Assembly: GCA_041396665.1 (NCBI GenBank)
Contig: JAWKYE010000014.1
Coordinates: forward strand, 102,189 to 166,188
Direction: 5' to 3'
DNA length: 64,000 nucleotides
Source of the DNA: Burkholderiaceae bacterium
GTDB taxonomy: Bacteria > Pseudomonadota > Gammaproteobacteria > Burkholderiales > Burkholderiaceae_E
The notes beneath the pieces are model-generated. The model ran no database searches, was not told the origin of the DNA, and saw nothing but the letters and a program-made list of their open reading frames with translations. This document shows, piece after piece, positions 35,173 through 52,931 of the stretch. The position numbers were made by a program, and so were the translations under genes. The stretch's first letter is position 1, and every line of letters starts with the position of its first letter.

Positions 35173-35898
35173 CTACTGCCGGTAGGTGGGATCGCGCAGA
35201 TCGAGCTTGCGCACCAGTGCGCCGTACACCATGTCGCAAACCACGGGTTCGGCCGGACCGGCCTCGCGCACCGTCTGTGCCAGCACCGGCGCGCCCAGCG
35301 AGCGGATCGGACCTGCCGCCGCCGCGGCCAGCTGGATCTCGCAGGCGCGCTGCATCGTCCAGAGCCACATGAAGGCCTCGGGCAGGCTCGTGCCCCAGGA
35401 CAGCAGGCCATGGTTGCGAAGGACCACCGCCCGGTGCGAACCGATGCTGGCCAGCATGCGCTCGCGCTCGGCCGGATTGACGGTCACCCCCTCGAAGTCG
35501 TGATAGGCGACCTGCCCGTGCAACTGGGCCCCGTAGAACGAATCGTGCGACAGGCCCTGCTCGAGGCAGGACACCGCGCATCCGGCCGTCGTGTGCGTGT
35601 GCATCACGCAGTGGGCGTTGTCGATGTGCCCGTGGATCGCGCTGTGGGTGACGAACCCGGCCCGGTTGATCGGATGCTGTCCCGGGCGCACCGGGTGGCC
35701 CTCGATGTCGATCGCCACCAGGTTCGACGCCATGACCTCGTGGTACTGCAGCCCGAAAGGGTTGATCAGGAACACCCGCTCGGGGCCCGGTACCCGCAGC
35801 GTGATGTGGTTGAAGATCATCTCGGTCCAGCCGAGCATGTCGAAGATCCGGTAGCAGGCGGCCAACTCGATCCGGGCCTTGTGCTCGGCGTCGGTCAT
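35173..35898 (-). CDS. Class II aldolase/adducin-family protein
   Basis: MTDAEHKARIELAACYRIFDMLGWTEMIFNHITLRVPG…, His-rich metal site (HGHIDNAHCVMHTHT). Intact. An upstream in-frame ATG lies at 35949. Confidence 0.75.
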   Translation of the reverse strand: MTDAEHKARIELAACYRIFDMLGWTEMIFNHITLRVPGPERVFLINPFGLQYHEVMASNLVAIDIEGHPVRPGQHPINRAGFVTHSAIHGHIDNAHCVMHTHTTAGCAVSCLEQGLSHDSFYGAQLHGQVAYHDFEGVTVNPAERERMLASIGSHRAVVLRNHGLLSWGTSLPEAFMWLWTMQRACEIQLAAAAAGPIRSLGAPVLAQTVREAGPAEPVVCDMVYGALVRKLDLRDPTYRQ

Positions 35899-36010
35899 CG
35901 GGATCTCGCGCTGTCCGTCGCGGGCGCGCTGTTGCATGTGCAGGGCCATGGATTCTTTGTCTCGGCAGGTCTGGATCTGGAAAGTGTACCGCGTAGGCGG
36001 CCGCTGACCT

Positions 36011-37633
36011 TCAATGTAGCGCAGCGATCACCGTATCGACCTGCACGACGGTGGCAACGTTCTGCATCGCGTAGTTGACCGAGGCCAGGTGCCACTCGTC
36101 ATTCATCGTCGAGCAGGCGTCTTCGGGCAGGATCACCCGGTAGCCCTTGTCGGCCCCGGTACGGGCCGTGTGCTCGATCGACATGTTGGTCCAGGCGCCG
36201 GTGTCGATGATCGTCTTGCTGCCCAGCGCCTTGAGCGTGGTCTCCAGCGAACTGCCTTCCCAGGCGCTCATCCGGTTCTTGATCACCACGTGGTCCCCGG
36301 GTTGGGGCTCCAGGCCCGGGGCCGGCTGCGCGCCCCAGGTGTCGCGCACAAGCGCGTTGGCCTCGCGCAGCCCCAGGAACAGCGGCGCATTCATCGGGAT
36401 CTCGAGCGCACCGGGCCCGACGATGAACCACACGTGGATGACCGGTACCCGGTGGCGCCGGCAATGGGCGGCCAGCCGGGCGATGTTGGCGATCGTGTTT
36501 TTCTTCGTGCAATGCGCGGGCGAACCGGAATCGGCGAACGCGCCGCCGGCGATCACCACGTCGTTCTGCATGTCCTGGATCAGCAGCGCGCAATCGGCGG
36601 CCTGCAGGTGTAGTGGGTCGGTGCTCAGCAGCGGGCCGATCGCGGCCCCGGCCGGGCCCGCCGGCGCTGACACCGGCAAAGCCGACGCCGGTGGCGGATC
36701 ACCCGCCGCGGCCGGATGGCCGCGCATGAAGGGCTCGATGCGGGGGCCTATCCGGGTGCGCACCGTGTACACCGAACGGGTCGCGCACACGAACAGGGTG
36801 CGCCAGTCCGGCCCACCCCAGTGCAGGTTGGCCGCCGGCTCGGGGATGCGGATCTTGCCGATCACCCGGCCGCCCGGGTCGAACACCCAGAGCCCGCCGG
36901 GCGCGGTGACCCAGACATTGCCCAGTGAATCGCACTTCATGCCATCGGGCACGCCGGGCAGACCGCTGTCGCGAACCCCCGAGGCGAACAGCCGCGGCCC
37001 CGACAGACCGCCATCGGCCTGCACATCGAACACCCGGATGTTCGCCTGGTCGGTGTCGTTCACGTACAGCAGGCGTTCATCGGGCGAGAAGCACAATCCG
37101 TTGGGCTGCTTGAACAAAAAGCGATCGACCAGCAGTTGCGGCTCGCCAGCGACCTGCCCCGGCGCGATCCTGTAGACCCCCTGAAAGCCTTGCTCAGGCC
37201 GGCGCTCGATTCCGTAGTACGGCATGCGCCCGTAGCTTGGATCGGAAAAGTAGATGGATCCGTCGCTATGAACACAGACGTCGTTCGGACTATTCAGCTC
37301 GCGGCCATCGAAATGGCTGGCCAGCACCTGGCGACGACCCTGCGCATCGAAGCGCGCGACACTCGAGGTGGCATGTTCGCAAACGACGAGGTTCAGCTGC
37401 GCATCATAGGTGAGCCCGTTTCCCTTGTTCGAGCCGCGCAGCTGTTCGCGCACGCCGGCCGCGCTGTCCCAGCGGCGGCGCACATCGCCGGGCATGTCCG
37501 AGAACAACAGGTATTGACCGCGTGGATGCCAGATGGGCCCCTCGGTGAACTCGAAACCGGTGGCCAGTTGTTCCACTGGCGCGTCGGGCTCGATCAGGTC
37601 GTCAAAAGCGGGATGCAGTCGTTGATGTGCCAT
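36011..37633 (-). CDS. Fusion protein with an N-terminal SMP-30/gluconolactonase/LRE-like beta-propeller and a C-terminal isochorismatase-family (cysteine hydrolase) domain
   Basis: Residues 1-290 look SMP-30-like (…FTEGPIWHPRGQYLLFSDMPGD…SPNDVCVHSDGSIYFSDP…NGLCFSPDERLLYVND…). A Pro/Ala linker follows (PAAAGDPPPASALPVSAPAGPAGAAIG). Residues about 340-540 look isochorismatase-like (…ALLIQDMQNDVVIAGGAF…VPVIHVWFIV…VIKNRMSAWEGSSLETTLKALGSKTIIDTGAWTNMSIEHTARTGADKGYRVILPEDACSTM). One uninterrupted 540-aa frame. Confidence 0.7.
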   Translation of the reverse strand: MAHQRLHPAFDDLIEPDAPVEQLATGFEFTEGPIWHPRGQYLLFSDMPGDVRRRWDSAAGVREQLRGSNKGNGLTYDAQLNLVVCEHATSSVARFDAQGRRQVLASHFDGRELNSPNDVCVHSDGSIYFSDPSYGRMPYYGIERRPEQGFQGVYRIAPGQVAGEPQLLVDRFLFKQPNGLCFSPDERLLYVNDTDQANIRVFDVQADGGLSGPRLFASGVRDSGLPGVPDGMKCDSLGNVWVTAPGGLWVFDPGGRVIGKIRIPEPAANLHWGGPDWRTLFVCATRSVYTVRTRIGPRIEPFMRGHPAAAGDPPPASALPVSAPAGPAGAAIGPLLSTDPLHLQAADCALLIQDMQNDVVIAGGAFADSGSPAHCTKKNTIANIARLAAHCRRHRVPVIHVWFIVGPGALEIPMNAPLFLGLREANALVRDTWGAQPAPGLEPQPGDHVVIKNRMSAWEGSSLETTLKALGSKTIIDTGAWTNMSIEHTARTGADKGYRVILPEDACSTMNDEWHLASVNYAMQNVATVVQVDTVIAALH

Positions 37634-37677
37634 GGTCGGACAACTCCAGGGTCAGAGGCGGGAATCAGAGGCGGTCA

Positions 37678-38580
37678 TCAGAGGCGGTAGATGCGGGCGG
37701 CCGTGTCATGCAGCACCGCGCGCTGCGCAGTCACCGGCAGCGACGACAGCGCCGCCCGATGTGCCGACAGCAGGCCGGCATAATCGGTCCACAGCTTCTC
37801 GATCGGGAAGTTCGAGCCGAACAGGCAACGCCCGGCGCCGAACAGGCGCACGGTCTGATGCACGATCTCGGCGATGTGCGCCGGATCGTTGCGATGCAAG
37901 AAGGTGCCCAGGCCCGAGGTCTTGCTGACGACGTTGGGCTCGGCCGCCAGCCGGGCCAATCCGGCCAGCCAGGCGGCCTGCCCCTGCTCGCCGGGGTCTT
38001 CGGGCATGCCGGCATGTTGCAACACGAAGGTCACTGCCGGGCAGCTGCGTGCCAGCGCGGCCGCCGCCGCCATCTGCGACGTAAAGACCTGCAGCTCGAA
38101 GCACCAGCCGTAGTCGGCGAGCCGGGCGATGTTGCGCTGCACCTGGGGCTGCAGCGGCATATCGGGGGTGACAGCGAAGCGGTACAGCGGGTTCTCGTGC
38201 CAGTGAAACTGCTGGCGTATGCCGCGCACCTGTTCGATCGCCGCGAGGCGGTCCAGATCGGGGCGCACATCGGGCTGGGTGAAATCGGCATAGGCGACGA
38301 TCGCCTGCGGCCAGCCATGCTGCTGCGACACCTGCTGCACCCAGCGCGCCTCCTGCTCGAACTGCCCGACCGGCCAGTTGGCCTGCACGTAGACCGACTG
38401 TCTCACCCCCAGGCCGGCGATGTCGCGCAGGTACTCCTCGATCAGATAGTCGCGCATGATCGGCTCGTAAGGCCCGAAGATCCGCGGCTGCATCGTGCCC
38501 TGCAACCAGGCGAGATCCCGCTGGCGCCAGATGTGGTGATGGGCATCGATCACGTCGATTGCGCCGCTCTCGTCGGTCAT
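37678..38580 (-). CDS. Amidohydrolase-2 family TIM-barrel hydrolase (lactonase/decarboxylase-like)
   Basis: MTDESGAIDVIDAHHHIW…, FHWHENP, VLQHAGMP, a C-terminal …LFGSNFPIEKLW. The ATG overlaps the downstream VWA gene start region (ATGA at 38577-38580). Confidence 0.8.
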   Translation of the reverse strand: MTDESGAIDVIDAHHHIWRQRDLAWLQGTMQPRIFGPYEPIMRDYLIEEYLRDIAGLGVRQSVYVQANWPVGQFEQEARWVQQVSQQHGWPQAIVAYADFTQPDVRPDLDRLAAIEQVRGIRQQFHWHENPLYRFAVTPDMPLQPQVQRNIARLADYGWCFELQVFTSQMAAAAALARSCPAVTFVLQHAGMPEDPGEQGQAAWLAGLARLAAEPNVVSKTSGLGTFLHRNDPAHIAEIVHQTVRLFGAGRCLFGSNFPIEKLWTDYAGLLSAHRAALSSLPVTAQRAVLHDTAARIYRL

Positions 38581-39719
38581 CGGAACTCCTTGGCCAGGGT
38601 CAACAGGGACGAACAAAGGCTGGCGATCGATGAGCCGTCGTCGAGCCGGGAGAGCATGGGCCTGATCGCGAGCATCGCCTCGGTCCGCGGTTCGTAGCGT
38701 GGATCGCCGGCCAGCGGCGACAGCCACAGTACCTGCCACGCCCGCTTGGACAGCCGTGCCATCGCCTGCACCAGCGCCCGTGGATCGCCGCGCTCCAGCC
38801 CGTCGGACACCACCACCACCAGCGCGCCGCGGGCAAAATCGGCATGACGCGGGATCGCCAGCAACGCGCCCAGCGCCTCGCCTATCCGGGTGCCGCCGTC
38901 GAAGTCGGCCACCAGCGACGCCGCCCGATTCAGCGCCCTGGCCTCGTCACGCAGCCGCAGCGCGGGACTGATCCGGGTGAGCCGGGTGCCGAGCGTGAAG
39001 CATTCGAAGTGATCGGCCGCCTGGCCCAGCGCATGCGCGAGCCGGAATGCATTGACCGTGTTCGCCTTCATCGAACCGGACACATCGATCAACAACAGGA
39101 TCCGCCGCTGGCGTCGCTTACGCGCCCACCGGTAAAGGCGCAGGGTTTCGCCGTCGCGACTCACCAGTTCGCGCAGATTGCGCCGCATGTCGTAGCGATC
39201 ACCGCGGTGGCTGGCCGCGCGCCGGTAGGACAACCGGCTCGGCAGCGCCGTGCCCGCCTCGCGCCGGAACCGGCGCAGCAGCGCCGAATCGCCGATGTCG
39301 CCAAACGCCCGACCGGTCAGCAGTTCGCCGCGGCTCGCCTGCTCGCCGACCGGGCTCTCGGTCTGCGGTTCGGGCACATCCCCCTGGCCGCTGTCCTCGT
39401 CGAACACCTGCATCTCGTCATCAGGCGCCTCGGTGGTCGCCGGGGCGGCCAGGCTCTGCCCGGCAAAGAACATCCGGAACAGCGCATCGAATTCGGCAAA
39501 GCGCTCGGGCGGCGGCGCCAGCGTGGCGCGCGCGGCGCGCAAGACGCCATGCAGGCTCGAGGGACGCAGCAAGCCGATCGATTCGACGAAGGCCATCGTC
39601 TGGTCCGGCGATACCCGAAAGCCGTTGGCCCGTAGCAGCGTCGGAAACACCACGAACGGCTGCGCCGCCTGCGGCAAAGCCTCGGGCAGCAGAGGGTCGG
39701 GACGATGGGCGGGCAGCAT
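38577..39719 (-). CDS. coxE: VWA-domain protein, CoxE-like
   Basis: 380 aa. VWA/MIDAS ILLLIDVSGSM…T..G. N-terminal CoxE-like region. Part of the cox-like operon. Confidence 0.75.
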   Translation of the reverse strand: MLPAHRPDPLLPEALPQAAQPFVVFPTLLRANGFRVSPDQTMAFVESIGLLRPSSLHGVLRAARATLAPPPERFAEFDALFRMFFAGQSLAAPATTEAPDDEMQVFDEDSGQGDVPEPQTESPVGEQASRGELLTGRAFGDIGDSALLRRFRREAGTALPSRLSYRRAASHRGDRYDMRRNLRELVSRDGETLRLYRWARKRRQRRILLLIDVSGSMKANTVNAFRLAHALGQAADHFECFTLGTRLTRISPALRLRDEARALNRAASLVADFDGGTRIGEALGALLAIPRHADFARGALVVVVSDGLERGDPRALVQAMARLSKRAWQVLWLSPLAGDPRYEPRTEAMLAIRPMLSRLDDGSSIASLCSSLLTLAKEFR

Positions 39720-39723
39720 CGGA

Positions 39724-40593
39724 TCAGCCGATCAGTTCGTCCAGCCGGTCGGCCAGGTAGGCCAGGTCGTCCTGGTCCTTGACCGCCACGCCGATCGCCC
39801 GCCGGAACGCCAGTGGCCAGTCCGAGCCCTGATCGTTGAGCAGGGTCGCCGCCTGCGCCCACTCGACGGTCTCGGCGACCCCGGGGGGCTTGGACAGCGG
39901 TTCGGCCCGCAACCGGCCCACCGAGCGCACGACCCAGTCGGCCGTGGCACGGGCCACCTCGCTGGCGCGCATCATCACGATCTGCGCCTCGCGCTGCGGG
40001 CCCGGGTAATCGATCCAGTGGTAGACACAACGCCGTCGCAATGCCTCGTGCAGTTCGCGGGTACGGTTGGACGTCAGTACCACGACCGGCCGTCGCGTCG
40101 CGCGCACCGTGCCGCGCTCCGGGATGGATATCTGGAAGTCGGACAGGAACTCGAGCAGGAAGGCCTCGAACTCATGGTCGGACCGATCGATCTCGTCGAT
40201 CAGCAAGACGGCATCGTCGGGCGATTGCAGCGCATCGAGCAGTGGCCGCGCGATCAGGAACTCGTCCCTGTAGATGTTCAGGTACTGGTCCGACGCCTGG
40301 CGGATCGCCAGCATCTGGCGCGGGTAGTTCCACTCGTACAGCGCCGCCGCGGCGTCTATCCCCTCGTAGCACTGCAACCGGATCAGGCGCCGCCCCAGCA
40401 CCGACGCCAGCGCCTTGGCCGCCTCGGTTTTGCCCACGCCAGGCGCGCCCTCGAGCAGCAGTGGCTTGCCCAGCGCGAGGCCCAGGTAGGCAGCGGTGGC
40501 CAGCCCCTCGTCGGCCAGGTATTGCGCGGCCAGCAATGCCTGCTCCAGCTCCTCGGGGCTGGCGATGCCGGCGATGGTCCGTTGCAGTGCCAC
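39724..40593 (-). CDS. coxD: MoxR-type AAA+ ATPase, CoxD-like
   Basis: Walker A LLLEGAPGVGKTEAAKALA, Walker B LLIDEIDRSD, and the sensor region. Confidence 0.8.
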   Translation of the reverse strand: MALQRTIAGIASPEELEQALLAAQYLADEGLATAAYLGLALGKPLLLEGAPGVGKTEAAKALASVLGRRLIRLQCYEGIDAAAALYEWNYPRQMLAIRQASDQYLNIYRDEFLIARPLLDALQSPDDAVLLIDEIDRSDHEFEAFLLEFLSDFQISIPERGTVRATRRPVVVLTSNRTRELHEALRRRCVYHWIDYPGPQREAQIVMMRASEVARATADWVVRSVGRLRAEPLSKPPGVAETVEWAQAATLLNDQGSDWPLAFRRAIGVAVKDQDDLAYLADRLDELIG

Positions 40594-40596
40594 CGA

Positions 40597-41619
40597 TCAG
40601 TACACCGGTTGCGGCTGCGCGCCACCCAGCTCGCGCAGGCCGCGCAGGATTTTCTCGGGCGTGATCGGCAGCTCGGTCACCCGCACCCCGACCGCGTTGA
40701 ACACCGCGTTGGCCACCGCCGGCAGCACCGGGTTGGCGCACATCTCACCCGGCCCCTTGCCACCGAACGGTGCATCGGGCGCCGGCCGCTCGAGGATCGC
40801 GATGTCGTGCGGGGCCACCTGGCCGGGCCCGGGCATCAGGTACCCGTCAAAGTCGACCGGGCCGTGCTCGCGGTCCGGATAGTACGGCTCGGTCGTCTCG
40901 TAGAGCGCGTGGCTCATGCCCATCCAGGCGCCTCCCACCAGCTGCTGCTCGACCAGTTTCGGATTCAGCGCCCGCCCCACCTCGTAGGCCGAGTTCATCC
41001 GGAGCACCTCGACTTCGCCGGTTTCATCGTCGACCGTGACGTCGACCACCATCGCGGCATGCGCAAAACACGAAACCGGCGTCATCTCGCCGGTCTGGGG
41101 GTCGACCTCGGACAACGGGATCAGGAAGATGCCGCGGCCGGACACGGTCTTGCCGTGCTTGAACTGCGCCGCGTTGCAGGCAGCGCCGGTGGTGATCGTA
41201 TTGGCCGGCGCGCCCTTCACGTGGATATTGCCCTTGCCGTCGGTCTCGAGGTCCTGCGGGTTCACCTCGAGTTCCTCGGCCGCCGCTTCCAGCATCACCG
41301 CCCGTGCCTCGCGGGCCGCCTCGATCACGGCGTTGCCGACCCGGTGCGTGCCACGCGACGCGAACGAACCCATGCAGTGTGGGCCGGTGTCCGAATCGGC
41401 GGTGTCGACGTAGACATCGCCAACCGGCACGCCGAGGGTTTCGGCGGCGATCTGGCGGGTCACCGACTTCATCCCCTGGCCCAGGTCGATGGACGACAGG
41501 GCCACGGTGAACTTGCCGTCCGGATTGGAATGCACCAGCGCCTGGCTGGGGTCGCCACCCAGGTTCATGCCGATCGGATAGTTGATTGCCGCAAAACCGC
41601 GGCCGCGATGCAAGGCCAT
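40597..41619 (-). CDS. Xanthine dehydrogenase / aerobic CODH-family molybdopterin-binding large subunit, C-terminal half (CoxL-like, split gene)
   Basis: MALHRGRGFAAINYPIGMNLGGDP…GQGMKSVTRQIAAE…GGKGPGEMCANPVLPAVANAVFNAVGVRVTELPITPEKILRGL are typical of the C-terminal Mo-cofactor-binding domains. The ATG lies 1 nt after the stop of the upstream N-terminal-half ORF. Confidence 0.75.
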   Translation of the reverse strand: MALHRGRGFAAINYPIGMNLGGDPSQALVHSNPDGKFTVALSSIDLGQGMKSVTRQIAAETLGVPVGDVYVDTADSDTGPHCMGSFASRGTHRVGNAVIEAAREARAVMLEAAAEELEVNPQDLETDGKGNIHVKGAPANTITTGAACNAAQFKHGKTVSGRGIFLIPLSEVDPQTGEMTPVSCFAHAAMVVDVTVDDETGEVEVLRMNSAYEVGRALNPKLVEQQLVGGAWMGMSHALYETTEPYYPDREHGPVDFDGYLMPGPGQVAPHDIAILERPAPDAPFGGKGPGEMCANPVLPAVANAVFNAVGVRVTELPITPEKILRGLRELGGAQPQPVY

Positions 41620-41620
41620 G

Positions 41621-43696
41621 TCAGCGCCTCCTGCCCGTCAGAGATGAGAACCCGCGGTAGGCGCGGGGCGTGTCCGGCTTGTCCTCGTCTTGCGCGGCCG
41701 GCGGCACCGGCGCCGTGACAGGCGTCGGCGACGAAGGCGCCTGGCCTGGCGCCGCGCGCTGTTGGGCCGCAGAACCGCGGGGGCCTGCGGCCTTGCCGGG
41801 TGCGGGAGCCCCGTACGGAGCCGGTGCGCCGTAGGGGGCGGTGGATCCCGAAGGCGCGGGCGCGCCGTAGGGGGCCGGAGAACCGTAAGGAGCCGGAGAA
41901 CCGTAAGGCGCCGGGGAACCATAAGGGGCCGGGGAACCATAGGGAGCCGGGGATCCGTAAGGCGCCGGCGACCCGGAAGGCGCCCGCGAGCCGTAAGGCG
42001 CCGGCGATCCATACGGCGTTGGCGACCCGTACGGCGCCGGGGCGCGGTAAGGCGCCCTGCCGGGAGTGGGTGCCGCCTGTCCCGGCGGCCGGGACAGCAC
42101 CGGGGCCGCGGCGCGCTCGGGAACCGGCGCCGGTGTCGGGCGCGCCGGCGCCGGCCGGGTTGCCGCCGGTGCCGGTCCCGGGCGGGCCGGCTCGATCCGC
42201 TGGGTGGGCGCACGCCGCCCGTCCGATGGCAGGTGTGGCTCGTCTGCGGCCCTGCCTTTGCGCCGATCGCCGATCCGCCCGTGCTCGTCGGTGACCGTGT
42301 GTGGAATCCGCGCCCGCTCGCCGCCACCATCGCGCAGCGACGACATCTGCTGGTAGACCTCGCCGATCGGCCACTGCGCCTTCTGAGCGGCCACCTGGCA
42401 CGACTCGATCAGCGCACAGTTCTTGGCCTCGCGTCGATGCGCCTTCATGTCGCCATCGCGATAGGCATTCAGGATGCGCAACTCGATCGGGTTCATCCGC
42501 AACTGCGAAGCCACCACGTCCATGTGGCTCTCGATCGCGAAATCCACCCCGGTGATGCCAAAGCCGCGCATCGCGGTGGCCGGCGTGCGGTTGGTATAGA
42601 CGCAGAACACGTCGCTGCTGACATTGGGGATCGTGTACGGCCCGGGCAGGTGGCCGGTGGCCTTGATGATCGCGTAGCTGGACAGCCGGGTGTACGCTCC
42701 CGAATCGAAGTAGCCGCGAAACTCGCGCGCGACGATCCGCCCATCGTTCATCACGCCGTCGCGGATGTACCAGCGCTCGGCACCGCGCGGCGCCCCGACC
42801 TGCATCTCCTCTGCCCTGTCCCACATGAACTTGACCGGCCGTCCGGTCAGCATGCAGCCCAGGATCGCCATCGGCTCGACCTGGCTGTCCACCTTGCCCC
42901 CGAAGCCGCCGCCCACGGTGCCCCCGATGAAGTGCATCTTGTTGGACGGCAGGTTCAGCAGCTTGGCGGCCGTGCCCAGCGAAAAGAACAAGGCCTGGGT
43001 CGACGTGTGGCAGACGATCCGGTCGTTGGTCTCGGGCGCGGCGATCGCGCCGTTGGTCTCGGTGGGCGCCTGCTCGATCGGCGACATCTGGTAGCGTCCC
43101 TCGATCACGTGGTCGGCCTTGGCGAACGCCGAGGCCACGTCGCCGAATCGCAGCTTCTGGTGATCGTAACGCTCGTGAAAATCGAAGGTGTTGTCGGGGT
43201 ACACGTCATTGACCACCGGCGCATCCGGTAGCAGCGCTTCTTCCACGTCCAGCACGTGCGGCAATACCTCGTACTCGACCACCACCGCATTGACCGCGGC
43301 CCTGGCCTGCGCGTCGGTCTGCGCAATGATCGCCAACACCGGCTCGCCACGGTAACGGACCTTCTGCGAAGCCAGCATCGGCTCGTCGTCGCGGCCGAAC
43401 TCGATCAGGCTGAGCAGCGTGTTCAGGTTGACCGGCACGTCGCGTGGCTGCACCACCCGCACCACCCCCGGCAGGCGCTCGGCCTGCGAAAAGTCGACCC
43501 GCCGGATCCGCGCATGGTGGTGCGGGCTGCGCACGCAGCGCATGTGCAACAGGCCCTCGAACAGGTGATCGTCATAGAACGGGCTGCGCCCGGTCACGTG
43601 ACCCAGGATGTCCTGGCGGATCGTCGGCTTGCCGATCTCGTTCAGGTCGTCATCGCGTTCGTCGGCGAACAAGTCCTTGCGAAATTCAATGGCCAT
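41621..43696 (-). CDS. XDH/CODH-family large subunit, N-terminal half (CoxL-like) fused in frame to a 0.7-kb Pro/Ala/Gly/Ser/Tyr-rich repeat tail
   Basis: MAIEFRKDLFADERDD…HMRCVRSPHHHARI…GGTVGGGFGGKVD (molybdopterin motif)… through CALIESCQVAAQKAQWPIGEV at about 42370. About 230 aa of low-complexity sequence follow, including (APYGSP) x about 14, and a stop at 41621. AAGGAA ribosome-binding site before the ATG at 43694-43696. Confidence 0.7.
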   Translation of the reverse strand: MAIEFRKDLFADERDDDLNEIGKPTIRQDILGHVTGRSPFYDDHLFEGLLHMRCVRSPHHHARIRRVDFSQAERLPGVVRVVQPRDVPVNLNTLLSLIEFGRDDEPMLASQKVRYRGEPVLAIIAQTDAQARAAVNAVVVEYEVLPHVLDVEEALLPDAPVVNDVYPDNTFDFHERYDHQKLRFGDVASAFAKADHVIEGRYQMSPIEQAPTETNGAIAAPETNDRIVCHTSTQALFFSLGTAAKLLNLPSNKMHFIGGTVGGGFGGKVDSQVEPMAILGCMLTGRPVKFMWDRAEEMQVGAPRGAERWYIRDGVMNDGRIVAREFRGYFDSGAYTRLSSYAIIKATGHLPGPYTIPNVSSDVFCVYTNRTPATAMRGFGITGVDFAIESHMDVVASQLRMNPIELRILNAYRDGDMKAHRREAKNCALIESCQVAAQKAQWPIGEVYQQMSSLRDGGGERARIPHTVTDEHGRIGDRRKGRAADEPHLPSDGRRAPTQRIEPARPGPAPAATRPAPARPTPAPVPERAAAPVLSRPPGQAAPTPGRAPYRAPAPYGSPTPYGSPAPYGSRAPSGSPAPYGSPAPYGSPAPYGSPAPYGSPAPYGSPAPYGAPAPSGSTAPYGAPAPYGAPAPGKAAGPRGSAAQQRAAPGQAPSSPTPVTAPVPPAAQDEDKPDTPRAYRGFSSLTGRRR
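41804..42058 (-). repeat. Imperfect 18-bp tandem repeat array (about 14 units) encoding (A/T)P(Y/S)G(S/A)(P/R) hexapeptides
   Basis: Units on the + strand: GGAGAACCGTAAGGAGCC, GGAGAACCGTAAGGCGCC, GGGGAACCATAAGGGGCC, GGGGATCCGTAAGGCGCC, GGCGACCCGTACGGCGCC and so on. They are in frame with the coxL N-terminal ORF on the - strand. Confidence 0.85.
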
Positions 43697-43704
43697 GATG
43701 TTCC

Positions 43705-44196
43705 TTACGCACGGCGGCCGCCGCCCTGGCGGGCAGCCACCAGGATGGCGTCGATGATCGGCTCGTAGCCGGTGCAGCGGCAGATGTTGCCGCCGATCGC
43801 CTCGATGACCTCGTCCCTGTCGGGGCTGGGGTTGCGATCGAGCAAGGCCTTGGCAGCCATCAGCATGCCCGGGGTACAGTAGCCGCATTGGGCGGCGAAG
43901 CCCTCGATGAAGGCGGTCTGCAACGGATGCAGCGTCGCGCCGTCGGACAGGCCGCTGACCGTGCCGACCTCGCGCCCCTCGACGGTCTCGGCCAAGGTGA
44001 GGCAGGACAGCTGCGGTTCGCCGTCGACCAGCACCGTGCAGCAGCCACAGGTGCCCTGCCCGCAGCCGTACTTCGGACCCAGGTCGCCGACGCCACGGCG
44101 CAGCACGTCGAGCAGGTTCTGCCCGTCTTCGACGAACACGGCCTTGTCCTGGCCGTTGAGGGAGAACTGGAGCGGTTTTCTGGCCATCGACATCAT
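43705..44196 (-). CDS. coxS: (2Fe-2S)-binding small subunit, CoxS-like
   Basis: CGQGTCGCCTV and CGYCTPGM Fe-S motifs. 163 aa, intact. Confidence 0.85.
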   Translation of the reverse strand: MMSMARKPLQFSLNGQDKAVFVEDGQNLLDVLRRGVGDLGPKYGCGQGTCGCCTVLVDGEPQLSCLTLAETVEGREVGTVSGLSDGATLHPLQTAFIEGFAAQCGYCTPGMLMAAKALLDRNPSPDRDEVIEAIGGNICRCTGYEPIIDAILVAARQGGGRRA

Positions 44197-44238
44197 CCTG
44201 TTGTAGGGAGGGTTGCGCGCCTGCTCATCGCGACGGCG

Positions 44239-45056
44239 TCACTGTGCCAGCAACAGGCGGCGCAGGTGCACCGGCGCCACCTCGCGCCGGTACCAGCCCG
44301 AGGCGATCGAGTCGGTCGGCGGATCGACACCGTCCAGACAGTGATGCAGCGCCTGGGCGATTCCCGCTTCGGTCAGGCTCTGTCCCTCGAGCGCCTGCTC
44401 GAGCGCCGGCACCCTGAACGGCCGGCGTGCCATCGAGCCGTAGGCGACGCGGGCACCGGCGATCCGCGAGGACCGCGACGGCAGCAGCGCGGCGATCGTC
44501 ATCACCGCGATGCCCCGGGGCCGCACGCGCGACACCTTGCGAAAACGCAGGGCATCGCGCGCCGGCCGCGCGAATGACACCGTCGAGACGATGCCGGCCG
44601 GACGCTGCGGCCCCTCGAGCGCCAGCAGGAAGTCCTCGAGGGCCCAGACGGTCTCGCCGGCCGGCGACACCAGCGTGAGTTCGGCCTCGAGCACCAGCAA
44701 CGCGCAGGTGAAGTCGCCGTAGGGAGAGCGCGCGAACAGGTTGCCGCCCACGGTGGCCGTGGTGCGCACCGCCGGCCCGCCCACTTTTAGCGCCACCGGC
44801 GCAAGAAACGCCAGTTCCCGGCTGGCCAGCACCTGGCTCATCGTCACCCCGGCGCCCAGCACCAGACGATCGCCGCGCGCGTCGATCCGGGTGAACGCCG
44901 GGTCGGTGGTGCGCACCAGCGTCTCGAATCGCAGGCGCCCTCGTTGACGGCCCGCATCACCAGCGTGCCGCCACCGAGAAAACCGGCGCCCCCGGGGGCA
45001 GCCAGCGCACGGGCGGCCTCGTCGAGCCGGGCGAACGCCTTGACGGTCAGGGTCAT
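44239..45056 (-). pseudogene. coxM: FAD-binding medium subunit, CoxM-like, with one frameshift
   Basis: The N-terminus MTLTVKAFARLDEAARALAAPGGAGFLGGGTLVMRAVNEG (44844..45056 frame) is typical of the FAD-binding subunit. The remainder (…LVRTTDPAFTRIDARGDRLVLGAGVTMSQV… to the stop at 44239) is in the 44239..45120 frame. The switch is at about 44950. Confidence 0.7.
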
Positions 45057-45526
45057 GAGTCACGGTCCTTGGTGTGATGGGAGGCGGCCTGCTCATCGAG
45101 CAGCCGGGCAACGGCGGCAAACCCCGCCTCGTAGATCTGCTTGCCGACCATGTCCTTCATCTGGTCGGCCAACCCGGCAAGAGTGTCGAACTGGCACGAC
45201 CATTCCCAGAAGGTCAGGTTGCCATCGGTCACCGGTACCAGCTGGATGCGGGCAACGTAGTTGAGCAATGGCACCGGCGTATCCAGCAGACAGTAGCGCA
45301 ACGTGGCCGTGGCATCGGACAGCTCGAGCAACTGCTCGCGCAACTGCGCGCCATCGGCCAGCCGGAAGTTGCGCACGCAACCGACCGCATCGGTCGGGCG
45401 ACCGCGCTCCAGGTGGCTCTGGGCGACCGCCGGATGCCAGCGATCATGGCCGTTGAAGTCGCGCAGCACCGCCCAGACCCGGTCGATCGGGTGCTCGAGC
45501 ACGGTGCTGCGGGTCAGCTTGATCAT
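45053..45526 (-). CDS. SRPBCC-family (polyketide cyclase / CoxG-like) protein
   Basis: 157 aa (…VWAVLRDFNGHDRWHPAV…), intact. Confidence 0.7.
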   Translation of the reverse strand: MIKLTRSTVLEHPIDRVWAVLRDFNGHDRWHPAVAQSHLERGRPTDAVGCVRNFRLADGAQLREQLLELSDATATLRYCLLDTPVPLLNYVARIQLVPVTDGNLTFWEWSCQFDTLAGLADQMKDMVGKQIYEAGFAAVARLLDEQAASHHTKDRDS

Positions 45527-45538
45527 GGTCCGCGCCCG

Positions 45539-45979
45539 CTACTTGCGCGTGAAGCGCCGCTTGAGCGCGTCGAACCCGGCCTGGAAGACGTTGCCGCCCA
45601 CTCCCTGCACCAACTCGTCCTCGACCTCGGGCGCGCACTCGAACTCGGCCGACCACTCGGCAAAGCAGCGGTCGCCATCGGTGATCGGCGTCAGCCGCAG
45701 CGTCGACACGTAATCGGTCAGCGGCATCGGGCTTTGCAGGATCGAGTAAGTGCACGACATCTCGTAGTCGGACAGCGCCAGCAGCTTCTCGCGCAGCTGG
45801 TCGCCGTTCTGCAGCCGGAAACTGCGCACACAGCCGACCCGGTCGGCCGGTTCGCCGTTCTCTATCTGGCTGTCGGCAATGCGCGGATGCCAGCGCGGCA
45901 ACCCGTTGAAATCGCGGATGCGCGCCCAGACTTCCGCGGCCGGCGCATCGATCACGCTAGAGACAAACACCTTGGCCAT
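45539..45979 (-). CDS. SRPBCC-family protein, tandem paralogue of the previous gene
   Basis: 146 aa (…VWARIRDFNGLPRWHPRI…VGCVRSFRL…), about 45% identical by eye to 45053..45526. Confidence 0.7.
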   Translation of the reverse strand: MAKVFVSSVIDAPAAEVWARIRDFNGLPRWHPRIADSQIENGEPADRVGCVRSFRLQNGDQLREKLLALSDYEMSCTYSILQSPMPLTDYVSTLRLTPITDGDRCFAEWSAEFECAPEVEDELVQGVGGNVFQAGFDALKRRFTRK

Positions 45980-45991
45980 CTGCTCGCTCCG

Positions 45992-48782
45992 TTACTTGCG
46001 CTTGGCCGGCGCGTCGGGCTTGTCGCCGCCACCCGAGGCGTCACCGCTGGCGGCCGGCCCCTTCGTATCGCCCTTGCCCTGCCCCACGTCCTTGGCAATC
46101 GCCGTCATGTCGCGTGCCTCGCGGATCAGCCCGCCCATCTTGGACAGGTTGCCTCCCTCGATGCCGATGTCCGCGAGCAGGCTGTCGACCATCGGCGCCT
46201 GCACCCGGTAGCGCAGCGCCGAATCGATGACCTCGTCGGTCGCGTTCTTGCGCTCGCCCGAACCCGAGCCCCCGCCACCCAGGCCATCGAGTTGCATGAT
46301 GCGGATGTCGTTGATCTTCTCCATCGGCTTGACCGACGCGGCGACGATGCCCTCGATGTGCTCGAGCAGCTTGCGCCGGAACAGCGAGTAACGGGCTTCG
46401 TCGGTGAGGACGTTCTCGGCCTCGTTGAGCAGGCGCTGGCCCTCGGCCTCGACCGCGGTCCGGATCGCCTGCGCCTCGGCCGCGATCCGCGCCTCCTCGG
46501 CGGCCTTCTCGGCCAACGTGACATCGACGGCCCGGCGCCGGTTCGCCTGCTCGGTCTCGCGCGCGGTCGTGACCTGCTCCTCGGCCTCGGCCACCTTGAC
46601 CCGGGCCAGGTCGGCCTTGGCCTGGGCGGCCAGTTCCTCGAGCGACTTCTGGTAGAGCGAGATCGCCTTGTCCATCAGCGAGCCCTCGATCGCCAGGTCG
46701 CGCTCGACCTCCTTGACCCGGCGCTGCCTCTCCTGGTCGATCCGCGCCTCGTCCAGCGCGCGCTCGGCCTCGATCCGCCGCTGCTCGACCTGCTCGTTGA
46801 ACGCCACTTCGGATTCGCGCAACGCCTGCATCCGTGCCACCTCGAGCAATTCGATCGTGCGCCGACGCTCCAGTTGCGCGGCATCGAGTGCCTGCTGGCG
46901 CTGCACATCGAGCGTCTCGCGCGCCTTGCTGGCCTCGATCCGTTCCCGTTCCAGGTTCAGCTCGACCGTGATGCGCTCGCGCTCGACCTTGTCACGCATC
47001 CGCTGCTCGGCCGACTCGATCGCCTCGTTGCGCTGGATCTCGCGATCGCGGGTCTGCTGGTCGGCCTCGATCCGCTCGAGCACCACCTGGCGCTCGTGTG
47101 CGATGCGCGAGGTGTCGACCGCGGCCCGCGCCGATGCCTCGGCCTGCTCCAGGGCCTTCTGACGCTCGATCTCGAGGTTGCGGGTTTCCTGCTCGGATGC
47201 GATCCGGTCGGCGGCAATGCGCTTCTCGTGCACGATGCGCGCCGAATCGATCGCCTCGCGGGCCTTGACCTCGGCCTCCTCGAGGATGCGTCGCCGTTCG
47301 ATGTCCAGCGCCGCGATATCGCGTTCCTGGCCGATACGCTCGGCCGCCAGCCGCTTCTCGCGGCTGATGCGCGCGGCCTCGATCGCCTCGGTGGCGGCGA
47401 TCTCGGCCTCGTCCAGCGTGCGCTGGCGCTCGATCTCGAGCTCACCGGGTACGCCGGTCGGCGGCGATCTGCTCGGCGCTGATCGCGAACTCCTGCGAGA
47501 TACGCAGCTTCTCGGCGGCCTCGCGGGCCGCCAGGCTGGCCTCGTCGATCGCCAGCGTGCGCTCGATCTCGCGCCGCTGGGACGCCTCTTCCTTGGCGAT
47601 GCGCGCCGCATTCACCGAGCGCTCCTGGTCGATCCGCGCGCGCGCCACGGCCTCGGCCGCGGCGATCTCGGCCGACTCGATCTCGCGGCGCCGCTCGATC
47701 TCGCGCGCCTGGGTCTTTTGCTCGTTCTCGATGCGGTTTTCGGCGAGCGAACGTTCCTGGTCGATCCGGGCCAGTTCGACCAGCTGGCGGGCCGAGATCT
47801 CGGCCGAGTCGACGCTTTGCTGGCGGCTGATCTCGCGCTGGCGGATCTCGCCCTCGGAACTGATCCGCGCCTCGGCGATCGTGTGTTCGTTGGCGATCCG
47901 CTGCTTCTCTATCGTCTCGCGGGCGATGATCTGCGCCTGCTCGGCCTCGGTGTCGCGCTGCGCCCGCTCGCGGGCCAGCTCGGCCCGCTGCTGGGCGCGC
48001 CGGAACTCGACCTCGCGTTCCTGGTCCAGCCGCGCCTCCTCGCTTTCACGCTCGATCTGCAAGGCCTGCTTCTCTGCCTCGAGGTTGCGCGCGCGGATGC
48101 GGATCATCGCGTCCTGCTCGATGTCGTTGCGCAGCTTGCGCTTGCCCTCGATGTCCTCGATCAACCGGGTCAGACCCTCGGCATCGAAACGGTTGGACGG
48201 GTTGAAGAATTCCAGCTCGGTCTGGTCGATGTCGCGAATGGCCACCGATTCGAGCTCCAGGCCGTTCTGCGACAGGCTCTCCTGGACCGTCTCACCGACC
48301 CGGCGCACGTAGTTGGCCCGCTGCTCGTGCATCTCCTCCATCGTCATCTCGGCCGCCACTGCGCGCAACGCCGAGATGAACTTGCCCGACAGCAATTCGT
48401 GCAGTCGGCCCTGCTCGAGCGTGCGCCGACCGACCGTCGAGGCGGCCACCGACACCGACTTGCGATCGGGCCGTACCCGCACGTAGAACTCGGCCTCGAC
48501 GTCGACCCGCATCCGGTCCTTGGTGATCAGCGCATTGTCGCGTGCCCGCGCCACCTCGAGCTGCAGCGTGTTCATGTTGACCGGCGTGATGTCGTGCAGG
48601 ATGGGCCACACGAACGCGCCGCCGTCGATGACCACCTTCTCGCCCAGGAAGCCGGTGCGCACGAACGCGATCTCCTTGGTCGATCGCCGGTACAGCCGGT
48701 TGATCACCCAGTAGATGATCGCGATGACGATGACGACCAGGATGAACCAGAGGATCAGTTGCCCGATGAATTGCCCTGTCAT
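45992..48782 (-). pseudogene. Flotillin/SPFH-domain protein (YqiK-like) with a very long Glu/Arg/Ala coiled-coil repeat region and one frameshift
   Basis: N-terminal TM segment plus SPFH domain (47442..48782 frame), ending …FAISAEQIAADRRTR-stop. The protein continues in the 45992..47611 frame from …GELEIERQRTLDEAEIAATEAIEAARISREKRL… to the C-terminal flotillin region (…IRIMQLDGLGGGG…) and a Lys/Asp-rich tail. The switch is at about 47450-47480. Confidence 0.65.
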
Positions 48783-48854
48783 GACTTGTCTCCGAAAACA
48801 CCTTCTGCAAACCTGCTCATGTCGCTTTCCCCACCGTTGACCCCATCATCGCCT

Positions 48855-49688
48855 TCAAACCCGGCCGATGCGCTTGAATTGGGCGGTCCGCTCGGTCAGC
48901 GCCTGCTCGGTCGGCAGGCGCTCCATCGACGAGGCACCGTAGAAACCGTGGCACAGCCGCGTGTTCTGCAGCACGTACTGCGCATCCTGCGGCGTGGCCA
49001 CCGGGCCGCCGTGCACCAGCACCAGGATATCCGGGCGCACCGCGAGCGCCGCCTCTGCCCAGGCGTCGACCAGCGCCGGACACTTTTCGAGGGTGAGCGC
49101 GGTCCGCGCACCTATCGTCCCGCCGGTGGTCAGGCCCAGGTGGCAGACGATGATGTCGGCGCCGGCGCGCGCCATCGCCCGGGCCTCGTCCTCGTTGAAC
49201 ACGTAGGGCGTGGTCAGCAGGTCCTTGCCATGGGCGCAGGCGATCATGTCCACCTCCAGCCCGTACGACATCCCGGTCTCTTCCAGGTTCGCCCGGAACG
49301 TGCCGTCGATCAGCCCCACCGTGGGAAAGTTCTGCACGCCCGCAAACCCCAGTCGTTTGAGTTCGTCCAGGAACACGTCCATCCGCCGGAACGGGTCGGT
49401 GCCGTTGACCCCGGCCAGCACCGGTGTGTCGCGCACCACCGGCAACACCTCGGCGGCCATCTCGACGACGATCTGGTTGGCATCGCCGTAGGCCAGCATG
49501 CCGGCCAGCGAGCCACGCCCGGCCATCCGGTAGCGGCCCGAGTTGTAAATGACGATCAGGTCGATGCCGCCGGCCTCCTCGCACCTGGCCGACAACCCGG
49601 TACCCGCGCCGCCACCGATGATCGGTTCGCCGCGTCGCGCCATATCGTGGAATCGCGCCATCAACGCGCGCCTGTCACCAACACTCAT
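48855..49688 (-). CDS. Phosphoenolpyruvate hydrolase-like family protein (TIM-barrel partner of UPF0261)
   Basis: 277 aa, [59 protein letters not shown]…, intact. The ATG overlaps the stop of the repeat ORF (ATGA). Confidence 0.75.
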
Positions 49689-49876: not shown

Positions 49877-51160
49877 GACACCCTCCGTTTTCGGCTGTCC
49901 CGCGGGCTGCCGTTGCCCCGGCTGCGCCGCAGGCCGTGCACCGCGTAGAAGGCGCGCAGCACCTCGTCGGCAAACGCCGGATCGTTGATGTGCATCGGCA
50001 GGCGCACCAGTTGCCGCTCGCTGCTGCGGGTCACACTGGCCTCGATCGCGGCGAACAAGACCTCGGTGAGCGCCGGGTCGTGAAACGGCTGGCCGGGCGC
50101 ATCCAGTGCCGACAGCCCGCCCTCGGGCATCAGGAAGCGCACCGGGCCGCGCATGCGGTTCAGCTTGGCGCCTATCCAGCGGCCGATCCGTTCATTCTCC
50201 TCGGCGTTGGTGCGCATCAGCGTCACCTGCGGGTTGTGCATCACCAGTTGACGCTGTTCGCGAATCGCCTCGGGCACCGAGTCGGGTGCGCCGAAGTTCA
50301 CCATGTCCAGCGCGCCGGGGGCGCCGACATACGGCATCGCGGCTCGCACGAAGGCCTCGAGCCGGTCTTCGGTCGCCGCCAGCACGCCGCCGGCCAGCAG
50401 GTCCGCAATCTCGGTGGTGGTCAGATCGATCACGCCCATCACCTGACCGGTGTCGACCAGGTTCTCCATCGCGCGCCCGCCCACCCCGGTCGCATGAAAG
50501 ACCAGGCAGTCGAAGTCGTCGGCCATCGCGCGGCTGATCCGTTGCACCGCGGGCGTCGTGACCCCGAACATCGTCAGGCCGACGGCAGCTCGCTCGGCCA
50601 ATGCCGCCTGGCCCAGCCGACGCCCGGCACTGCCCGCCAGTTGCTGCTCGCGGCGCGCCCGTGCCATGCCGATCATCGCCTGCGCGGCATTGCCCAGCAC
50701 GTCGCGGGTGATCCGGTTCAGGCCCTGCACATCGGCGACCGAATGCATCATCATGATGTCCGACGGCCCGACATAGGCGCGACGTCGCCGCTGGCCACCG
50801 TCGAGACCATCAGCTTGGGAACACCGATCGGCAGCGCCCGCATCGCCGGCGTGACCATCGCCGTCGCCCCTGATCCGCCCGCGCCCAACAGGCCGGCAAT
50901 GCCGCTCTGGCGTCGCACCCAGCGCTCGAAGGCCAGCGCCATGCCGGCCACCGCCTCGCCGCGATCGGCAACGAACACGCCGGCCGCACCCCGCGGGTGC
51001 CACGCGGCCACCTGGTGCGCAGGGATGTCGGCCGACGACTGGCGCCCACTGGTCGACACATCGACCAGGCGCACCGCGATCCCCGCCGCCTTGAGCAGAT
51101 CGCGCAACAGCCGCAGTTCCTCGCCCTTGGTGTCCAGCGTGCCGGCCACCAGCACCACCG
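49873..51160 (-). pseudogene. UPF0261 (Tm-1-like ATP-binding) family protein with one frameshift
   Basis: N-terminal [19 protein letters not shown]…[15 protein letters not shown] (frame of 50751..52154), then [25 protein letters not shown]… to the stop at 49873 (frame of 49873..51966). GAC-GTC-GCG-CC / TAT-GTC is 1 nt short. The N-terminal start is uncertain (possibly GTG in DAVVLV). Confidence 0.7.
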
Positions 51161-52136: not shown

Positions 52137-52931
52137 GGGTGAAGCCCCCGCCAAGATACAGCGCCTGGACCTGCGGGTCCGATTCGATCTCGGCCGGCTT
52201 GCCTTCCTTGAAGATACGGCCGTTGTGCATCATCGTGACACTCTCGGACACCCGCAGCGCGACATCCATGTCGTGCTCGATGACGATGTAGCCGATGTGC
52301 TCGGGCAGCCCGTTCAGGATGCCGACCAGTTCGCGCCGTTCGGTCGGCGACAGGCCCGCCGCCGGCTCGTCGAACAGGATGAAGCGCGGGGCGCCGGCCA
52401 GCGCCAGCGCGATCTCGAGCTGGCGCTGCTGGCCATATGACAACTGTGACACCGGCAGCTCGCGCACATCGCCCAGGTGCACCGCGTCGGCCAGGTCGCG
52501 CGCCGACTGCATCAGCGAGTCGTGCTGACGCGGCCGGATCATCGAGAAGCGCGCCCGCGACACCCCCGGCAGGCCAGGTAGACGTTGTCGATCACGCTCA
52601 GGCCGCCAAACAGCAGCGAGATCTGGTAGGTGCGCCGCAAGCCGCGACGGATCCGCTCGTGCGCCGGAAATGTCGTGACATCCTCGCCGAACAGCCGGAT
52701 GACGCCCGAAGTGGGCAGGAAGTCGCCGGTCACGCAATTGAACAACGTGGTCTTGCCAGCGCCGTTGCTGCCCAGCACCGCGCGGCGCTCGCCCGGGCGC
52801 ACGCTCATCGTGATGTCGGACAGCGCCGCCAGCGCACCGAAGTAGCGGCTGACCCCGCGCAGTTCGAGCGCGTTGCCGCTGCCGGCCAGCGGGGCTGCCC
52901 GGTCGGCCGGGGTATCGGCTCCCGGACTCAT
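52129..52931 (-). pseudogene. livG: Branched-chain amino acid ABC transporter ATP-binding protein (LivG-like) with one frameshift
   Basis: N-terminal half MSPGADTP…LELRGVSRYFGALAALSDITMSVRPGERRAVLGSNGAGKTTLFN… (52539..52991 frame) stops after …NVYLACRG. The gene continues as …ARFSMIRPRQHDSLMQ…LSYGQQRQLEIALALAGAPRFILFDEPAAGL… (52129..52737 frame). Confidence 0.7.

Follow-up and report, generated by a model that had tools for sequence, protein, structure and literature searches.

A repeat-bearing C-terminal tail on one half of a probable split molybdenum hydroxylase subunit in a Burkholderiaceae contig

The stretch of DNA analysed here (64,000 nucleotides of contig JAWKYE010000014.1 from the Burkholderiaceae bacterium assembly GCA_041396665.1, hereafter the window) carries on its minus strand a cluster for a molybdenum (Mo) hydroxylase whose Mo-binding subunit is encoded by two adjacent open reading frames (ORFs), L and M. 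About 245 codons (244 after residue 447) run from the catalytic core of L to its stop codon and contain an array of 18-bp repeats. The original prediction, made from the letters alone, described a coxL-like gene split by this repeat-rich insertion, either yielding two polypeptides by coupled translation or inactivated by repeat expansion. We consider it very probable that the cluster encodes a functional split enzyme, with translation of M coupled to that of L, and that L carries a selected, clade-defining disordered tail or tether.

L and M together contain the domains of a complete Mo-binding subunit of the xanthine dehydrogenase (XDH) / aldehyde oxidase / CO dehydrogenase (CODH) family. Residues 33-408 of L match the Pfam families Ald_Xan_dh_C (PF01315, the a/b-hammerhead) and MoCoBD_1 (PF02738), and M matches MoCoBD_2 (PF20256). 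Q234, GGGFGGK (262-268) and RGFG (377-380) of L are invariant in an alignment of 120 sequences (A3), while GPGEM of M aligns with the GVGEP catalytic-Glu segment of NdhM. These domains and motifs, together with partner genes for a [2Fe-2S] protein and a flavin adenine dinucleotide (FAD) protein, place the cluster in the family. The core of L ends ...AQKAQWPIGEV at residue 447 (about position 42356), near the point, about 42370, to which the N-terminal half had been said to read normally. The M ORF (40597-41619) begins MALHRGRGFAAINYPIG.

The best Protein Data Bank match of L is 3HRD_A (NdhL, 425 residues; E = 9e-61, query residues 15-440) and that of M is 3HRD_B (NdhM, 330 residues; query residues 4-328 against chain residues 3-325). 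The ends of the 3HRD chains coincide with the end of the L core and the start of M. An AlphaFold2 (AF2) model of L scores above 90 in the predicted local distance difference test (pLDDT) over the core and has 3hrd_A (TMt 0.85) as its best fold match. For comparison with relatives, 80 tail-bearing loci (L001-L080) were used, of which the 69 with both L and M were scored for tail and junction, and 70 tails were scanned for repeats. The break between L and M falls between the helix after MoCoBD_1 and the G-R/K-G-x-G strand, as in NdhL/NdhM, and this arrangement is kept in the 69 loci. All 120 closest homologues of M are 339-349 residues long, so none of them is fused. These matches agree with the part of the original prediction that saw an XDH-family Mo-binding subunit encoded as two polypeptides. 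The coxL-like label does not stand: L scores 167 bits against the CoxL model TIGR02416 (cutoff 991) and 165 bits against NF040766 (cutoff 950), and its nearest solved relative is nicotinate dehydrogenase. No NCBIfam equivalog attains its cutoff, so NCBIfam does not give a substrate assignment. Judged from their sequences, L and M appear to be the separately translated Mo-binding halves of a four-subunit hydroxylase (FAD, [2Fe-2S], L and M) of the NdhL/NdhM type, and the split is both natural and ancestral.

The tail of L comprises a conserved proximal motif, a hypervariable spacer rich in Pro, Ala, Gly, Ser and Tyr, and a conserved basic distal motif (Table 1). A C-terminal extension is present in every one of the 120 closest L homologues (63-82% identical, 504-687 residues). 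Its length in the 69 loci is 106-245 residues (median 156), with the window at the top of the range. The proximal motif has the consensus SSL.(D/G)GGGERA.IP.TVTD..G.IGERR in alignment A3; across the 120 homologues S453 and D470 are invariant, and conservation is 93% or more at G457-459, R461, P465, T467 and G473. The distal motif, with the consensus ...R-P-G-.-S-R-F-.-S-.-S-G-.-R-R-R, is conserved too (R673 93%, F683 99%, S687 88%, G688 97%, RRR 97%). The spacer between the two varies from 36 to 187 residues, the window having the longest, and has no conserved sequence. In the window Pro makes up 28% of it, Ala 22% and Tyr 6.4%; the homologue medians are 27% Pro and 20% Ala. In the AF2 model, pLDDT is 30-54 over the spacer and distal motif and 75-83 over proximal residues 451-480. 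These values predict an ordered proximal motif and, for L taken without M and other partners, disorder in the spacer and distal motif. Composition and pLDDT alike agree with the earlier suggestion of a disordered Tyr/Pro repeat tail on the first polypeptide. A Pfam search with three isolated tails gave no match above threshold. A collagen-like repeat was considered and rejected, as PF01391 matches with E = 0.38 and 11 bits (cutoff 27) and Gly recurs at every sixth residue, not every third. In the 69 loci, synonymous positions at the conserved distal Ser (-6) and Gly (-5) codons vary freely (1.3-1.7 bits), which argues that selection on the distal motif acts on the protein. The tail is accordingly best read as a translated and selected C-terminal extension of L that defines a clade.

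The junction between the two genes reads AGG AGG CGC TGA C ATG, with the stop codon at 41621-41623 and the M start codon at 41617-41619. The original prediction had taken this stop-C-ATG arrangement to fit coupled translation, and the other loci bear it out: the distance from L stop to M start falls between -4 and +4 nt in 66 of the 69 (the spacings seen being -4, -1, +1, +2, +3 and +4 nt), and the stop is TGA in 63. The last three codons of L, in which a Shine-Dalgarno sequence for M is embedded, are AGG AGG CGC in 35 of the 69 loci, with AGG at codon -3 in 54 and AGG or AGA at codon -2 in 64. Third-position entropy at the Shine-Dalgarno codons is 0.19-0.74 bits, compared with 1.2-1.9 bits at 23 other scored codons. 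AGG and AGA are unusual Arg codons at a GC content of about 70%. Since their synonymous sites are frozen, the terminal Arg-Arg is at least partly dictated by the embedded Shine-Dalgarno sequence. Translation of M is thus very likely coupled to termination of L, and the junction is a compact case of codons that also serve the following gene as its ribosome-binding site.

The 18-bp array lies within the spacer. About 14 copies of a unit encoding APYGSP had been counted previously, and parsing by codons gives exactly 14 imperfect units. Tandem Repeats Finder reports an 18-bp period (10.7 copies, 41865-42056) as well as 36- and 54-bp periods (41811-42040), with scores of 181-187. The units are about 75-81% identical. 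Pairwise differences between them number 79, 37 and 341 at codon positions 1, 2 and 3 respectively (75% at the third), and 266 of the codon differences are synonymous against 115 non-synonymous. Silent sites have thus drifted under a peptide repeat that was maintained; an array newly expanded by slippage would not look like this. The resemblance to eukaryotic C-terminal-domain-like repeats that had been remarked on does not extend to the unit itself, whose period is six residues (18 bp; consensus APYGSP) and not the seven of YSPTSPS. A search for the 18-mer with up to three mismatches gave eight matches, all within the array, where chance would give 0.08; the unit was found nowhere else in the window. 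A dispersed repeat, which the original prediction had suggested checking for, was therefore rejected, the unit being confined to the array within the window.

The closest relative found, L081 from a Logan assembly, has an M that is 94% identical and a shared core that is about 97% identical. Its 274-residue tail differs from that of the window by many indels, all in frame, and ends RGFTSLTGRRR*. At the same place it contains a homologous array that has diverged to xP(Y/H)GSP (...APYRAP APYRSP ... TPYGSP, three APHGSP, two APHGTP and APYGSS). Short tandem repeats occur in 25 of the 70 tails scanned. Together with the in-frame indels of L081, this indicates a spacer that is prone to slippage but keeps its frame and general character. 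The window array is the largest seen among the tails compared, and the 14 APYGSP units are the extreme of a normal family trait. An independent 24-bp array of 6.5 copies, (GGTPAYAA)n, is found in the tail of L076, an unrelated member (locus coordinates about 6400-6550), so Tyr-containing peptide repeats arose more than once in the spacer.

Relatives lacking the tail were found in a search of 1.84 billion cluster representatives (50% clustering), in which the tail-bearing clade is a single full-length representative of 623 residues. Among the relatives that come next (35-51% identity) are L-type proteins of 433-463 residues, which match only as far as the core end. Fused subunits of 750-780 residues appear beside short L-type relatives from about 39% identity downward. 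The short proteins stop 10-30 residues past the core, just after M(S/T)S, the counterpart of the start of the proximal motif. Two groups of sister loci were fetched. One contains FAD, FeS, L and M genes only. The other (L146, L148 and L149) has the order SRPBCC-FAD-FeS-L-M-MoxR-VWA-amidohydrolase, the same as the window, with M 66-68% and MoxR 67-69% identical to the window proteins. L of L146 (455 residues) ends ...MQMSSYGEV*, 1 nt before the M start. Because these tail-less sisters are also split, the tail is best read as an extension of an already separate subunit, gained after the split. With three sister loci sampled for comparison, presence of the tail goes together with a flotillin gene in the operon and a further SRPBCC gene, both lacking in the tail-less sister cluster.

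We propose that ribosomes ending L at the TGA would re-initiate 1 nt downstream by means of the AGGAGG inside the Arg codons of L. The proximal motif (about 35 residues) would pack on the enzyme, and the Pro/Ala spacer would remain disordered, its length and sequence changing fast by in-frame slippage. In the lineage of the window this turnover may have yielded, and selection retained, the Tyr-containing hexapeptide array. The flexible tether would then present the distal basic motif, as a short linear motif, to a binding partner. A tether is suggested because the tail joins an anchor predicted to be ordered to a conserved motif at its end through a spacer whose length varies.

How far the window sequence can be trusted bears on several of the alternatives. 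The coxM-like gene for the FAD subunit has its N-terminus, MTLTV...RAVNEGA, in one frame from 45056 and the remainder, LRFETLVRTTDP, in another. Against the reading that homologues share, ...RAVNEGA-L.F.TLVRTTDP, a single C is missing at about 44934. The frameshift pointed out in the original prediction is thus there, but its use as a sign of decay is weakened by at least three further conserved genes in the window that are each broken by a single frame change: the flotillin-like gene (about 47444), a UPF0261 gene with its Pfam N-domain divided over two frames (about 50800-50880), and an ABC ATPase gene whose ABC_tran domain is likewise divided (about 52554-52590). With at least four such frameshifts in the window, assembly indels are the likelier cause of the one in coxM. 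The remaining genes of the cluster, apart from those for the FAD and flotillin-like proteins, are intact, as are the active-site motifs of L and M. The frameshifts suggest either an indel-prone metagenome-assembled genome (MAG) or a genome gathering pseudogenes. A POR/DUF6537 gene near position 6860 may hold a fifth frameshift.

A pseudogene, in which recent slippage broke a formerly fused gene within a decaying operon, would account for the frameshifted coxM-like gene, for the loss of coding bias in third-position GC (GC3) within the tail, and for the window tail being the longest in the comparison of 69 loci and 120 homologues. We give this explanation very little weight, since split and tail are both ancestral and conserved, the array units differ chiefly at silent sites, the reading frame stays open for 245 codons as far as a C-terminal motif that is itself conserved, L and M keep their active-site motifs, and the frameshifts in unrelated genes point to assembly error. 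The split itself falls at the point that divides NdhL from NdhM and is shared by tail-less sisters, so the gene was not split by an insertion. Nor does the picture of a repeat-expansion lesion fit a Pro-rich tail found in every close homologue, between conserved flanking motifs, or the in-frame array of L081. A conserved Pro-rich linker in relatives, the observation that the original prediction had named as contradicting an insertion, is largely what was found, with conserved flanks and a spacer of variable length. That the array, or its copy number, results instead from collapse or expansion during assembly is distinctly unlikely. Tandem repeats are error-prone in assembly and the contig comes from a MAG with several indel-type frameshifts, yet a separate Logan assembly of a related organism has a homologous array at the same place, and the units are divergent enough for unique assembly, with frame and terminal motif intact. 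A programmed +1 frameshift or readthrough at AGGAGG-CGC-UGA-C, of the prfB kind, would produce a fused L-tail-M protein with the tail as an interdomain linker. The Shine-Dalgarno-like sequence 3 nt before UGA-C superficially resembles a release factor 2 recoding site, and M does lie in the +1 frame. Recoding is nevertheless scarcely conceivable here: the frame offset between L and M varies among loci, so a conserved fusion of this kind is not credible; CGC, the P-site codon, is not one that slips readily into +1 pairing; M begins with an ATG of its own in every case; and NdhL and NdhM of Eubacterium barkeri are separate chains.

Other explanations concern the role of the tail. It might dock the hydroxylase to a membrane platform, with the distal basic motif binding a flotillin microdomain or a quinone-carrying SRPBCC protein, the tail of L replacing the linker and helix of CoxG, and the Tyr-rich array tuning reach or self-association. 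This idea, which is tentative and on balance unlikely, is suggested by the co-occurrence of the tail with flotillin and second SRPBCC genes and by the lack of a CoxG-type tether on the SRPBCC proteins of the window. The tail might also be a handle, a disordered end that the co-encoded MoxR AAA+/VWA machine (CoxD/CoxE-like) grips in order to open the apo-enzyme and let the cofactor in. Disordered termini are frequent targets of AAA+ remodellers, and most loci have MoxR and VWA genes after M; however, tail-less L146, L148 and L149 have both genes, with MoxR 67-69% identical, and tail-bearing L002-L005 have neither nearby. As the genes are present in a tail-less sister cluster, the MoxR/VWA pair is an improbable partner for the tail, and we regard the handle as very unlikely. 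Finally, distal conservation could act only at the level of RNA, as a Shine-Dalgarno sequence and unstructured mRNA for translation of M, leaving the peptide a functionless passenger. Constraint at the nucleotide level is plain for the last two or three codons, and the lack of any match to an Rfam covariance model (E up to 1, window positions 37000-47000) is also counted in favour. It is still highly improbable, because F683, S687, G688 and R673, farther upstream, show free synonymous variation, the proximal motif, about 600 nt away from where M begins, has invariant residues, and the tail-less sisters achieve coupling by means of a short end alone.

Several points count against a functional enzyme with a selected tether. 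Sisters that do without the tail have the same accessory genes, so it is not required for the basic fold or for maturation by MoxR/VWA. If the frameshift in the coxM-like gene is real, the enzyme would be inactive in the source organism. The exact repeat number is not secure, the window coming from an indel-prone assembly, and the tail is presumed to be retained in the mature enzyme. An AF2 model of concatenated L and M (alignment A1, MAFFT-aligned homologues) has a mean pLDDT of 41 and gives no information on contacts between tail and M.

The genes of the minus strand form an unbroken series, by ORF and Pfam analysis, from the flotillin-like gene (48782) to the fusion of SGL and isochorismatase domains (36011) (Table 1). 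Both SRPBCC genes are kept 5' of the FAD gene across the 80 loci; their products (146 and 157 residues) have no linker and no membrane anchor according to Pfam. MoxR and VWA genes lie downstream of M in most of the 80 loci, the exceptions including L002-L005. The flotillin-like gene ends 12 nt upstream of the first SRPBCC start in the window, an operonic flotillin gene is present in 66-70 of the 80 tail-bearing loci, and none was seen beside the tail-less sister clusters L146 and L149. Its length is about 930-956 residues, and in L014 it is a single ORF of 956. Together with a PEP-hydrolase-like gene it occupies 45992-49688, directly 5' of the SRPBCC genes, an arrangement kept in 51-70 of the 80 tail-bearing loci; the PEP-hydrolase-like gene, too, was not seen next to L146 and L149. 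A gene on the opposite strand at the locus was considered and rejected, since long plus-strand ORFs are ordinary at 70% GC and show no GC3 bias.

Table 1. Coordinates of the genes, tail segments, repeats and junction elements of the cluster, in window positions.
Feature	Coordinates	Strand	Basis or remark
Flotillin-like gene (Band_7 + Flot)	45992-48782	minus	Frame broken near 47444
SRPBCC (Polyketide_cyc2) gene 1	45539-45979	minus	Pfam
SRPBCC (Polyketide_cyc2) gene 2	45053-45526	minus	Pfam
coxM-like FAD subunit	44239-45056	minus	Pfam FAD_binding_5 + CO_deh_flav_C; 1-nt frameshift near 44934
[2Fe-2S] small subunit	43705-44196	minus	Pfam Fer2 + Fer2_2
L, N-terminal NdhL-like half of Mo-binding subunit, 691 aa + TGA	41621-43696	minus	Pfam Ald_Xan_dh_C + MoCoBD_1
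L catalytic core, aa 1-447	42356-43696	minus	Motifs binding the molybdenum cofactor intact
Proximal conserved tail motif, aa 448-482, YQQMSSLRDGGGERARIPHTVTDEHGRIGDRRKGR	42251-42355	minus	Alignment A3, AF2
Hypervariable Pro/Ala/Gly/Ser/Tyr-rich spacer, aa 483-665	41702-42250	minus	Alignment A3, AF2
Minor 21-bp imperfect repeat, 3.2 copies, PAPAATRPAPARPTPAP	42124-42191	minus	Tandem Repeats Finder
14 imperfect 18-bp units, (A/T)P(Y/S)G(S/A)(P/R/T), consensus APYGSP, aa 548-631	41804-42055	minus	Codon parsing
Distal conserved basic motif, aa 666-691, ends RAYRGFSSLTGRRR	41624-41701	minus	Alignment A3
AGGAGG Shine-Dalgarno sequence for M, inside last-but-one Arg codon pair of L	41627-41632	minus	
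TGA-C-ATG termination/re-initiation junction	41617-41623	minus	
M, C-terminal NdhM-like half of Mo-binding subunit, 340 aa	40597-41619	minus	Pfam MoCoBD_2
MoxR-type AAA ATPase	39724-40593	minus	Pfam, NCBIfam
CoxE-like VWA protein	38577-39719	minus	Pfam, NCBIfam
Amidohydro_2-type hydrolase	37678-38739	minus	
SGL (SMP-30/gluconolactonase)-isochorismatase fusion, 540 aa	36011-37633	minus	

The closest described parallel is the nicotinate dehydrogenase NdhF/S/L/M of E. barkeri (3HRD), likewise a four-subunit enzyme, with two Mo-binding proteins, NdhL and NdhM (PMC10331938), divided by the same break. NdhL, however, ends at residue 425 without a tail, and identity to the window protein is about 30%. 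E. barkeri is moreover a Firmicute anaerobe with a selenium-dependent enzyme, for which no context of SRPBCC, MoxR/VWA or flotillin genes is reported. The cox cluster (CoxMSL, the AAA+ protein CoxD, the VWA protein CoxE and the SRPBCC protein CoxG) shares with the window its FAD, FeS and Mo subunits and its MoxR, VWA and SRPBCC genes, but CoxL is a single chain, whereas the Mo subunit of the window is split and scores far under the CoxL cutoffs. CoxG of the CO dehydrogenase of Mycobacterium smegmatis shuttles menaquinone and is joined to the membrane through a flexible linker plus helix (PMC12202499). The SRPBCC proteins of the window are of the Polyketide_cyc2 type and too short for such a linker and helix (PMC12202499). 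A flexible tether in a Mo hydroxylase system is a likeness of concept only: that of CoxG is part of the quinone carrier, with a transmembrane helix at its end, while the putative tether of the window belongs to catalytic L and has a short basic motif there. The ndrB1B2B3B4 cluster of Sphingomonas melonis TY, an alphaproteobacterial XDH-family cluster compared here by its description, is reported to have two large-subunit-like genes, ndrB3 and ndrB4, and the paper mentions no tail (PMC5239795). HpdA of Ensifer was rejected as a comparator, its Mo subunit being unsplit and of a different family. In the literature, no Pro-rich tail or split of this kind in Mo hydroxylases was found described, nor any link between flotillin and CoxG, and the conserved tail is apparently undescribed.

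The clade comprises widespread, uncharacterised split molybdenum hydroxylases, mostly from Alphaproteobacteria, and neither this locus nor its thousands of homologues, which carry generic database names, should be annotated as a broken coxL. Culturable carriers include Shinella zoogloeoides, Roseibium and Aquibaculum. To a specialist the locus is mildly surprising and not anomalous. A tail with two conserved short motifs offers a handle on enzyme assembly, localisation or the wiring of the enzyme to the respiratory chain.

M is identical to NCBI MEZ5738892.1 (MAG: Burkholderiaceae bacterium). The exact L protein is not in a collection of 15 billion proteins, though the adjacent M is; the public record may give L a different start or list it as a pseudogene. 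Despite the Burkholderiaceae label, each gene of the cluster has its nearest relatives, at 74-89% identity, in Alphaproteobacteria (Rhizobiales, Rhodospirillales and Rhodobacterales), which leaves either horizontal acquisition of the cluster or a doubtful bin label. The GC content of the cluster (0.65-0.71) does not differ from that of its flanks. Downstream, the SGL/isochorismatase fusion gene, 3' of the amidohydrolase gene, is kept in 52 of the 80 loci. It is adjoined in the window by a class II aldolase gene (35173-35949), an adjacency that is not conserved. Both are possible clues to the substrate pathway.

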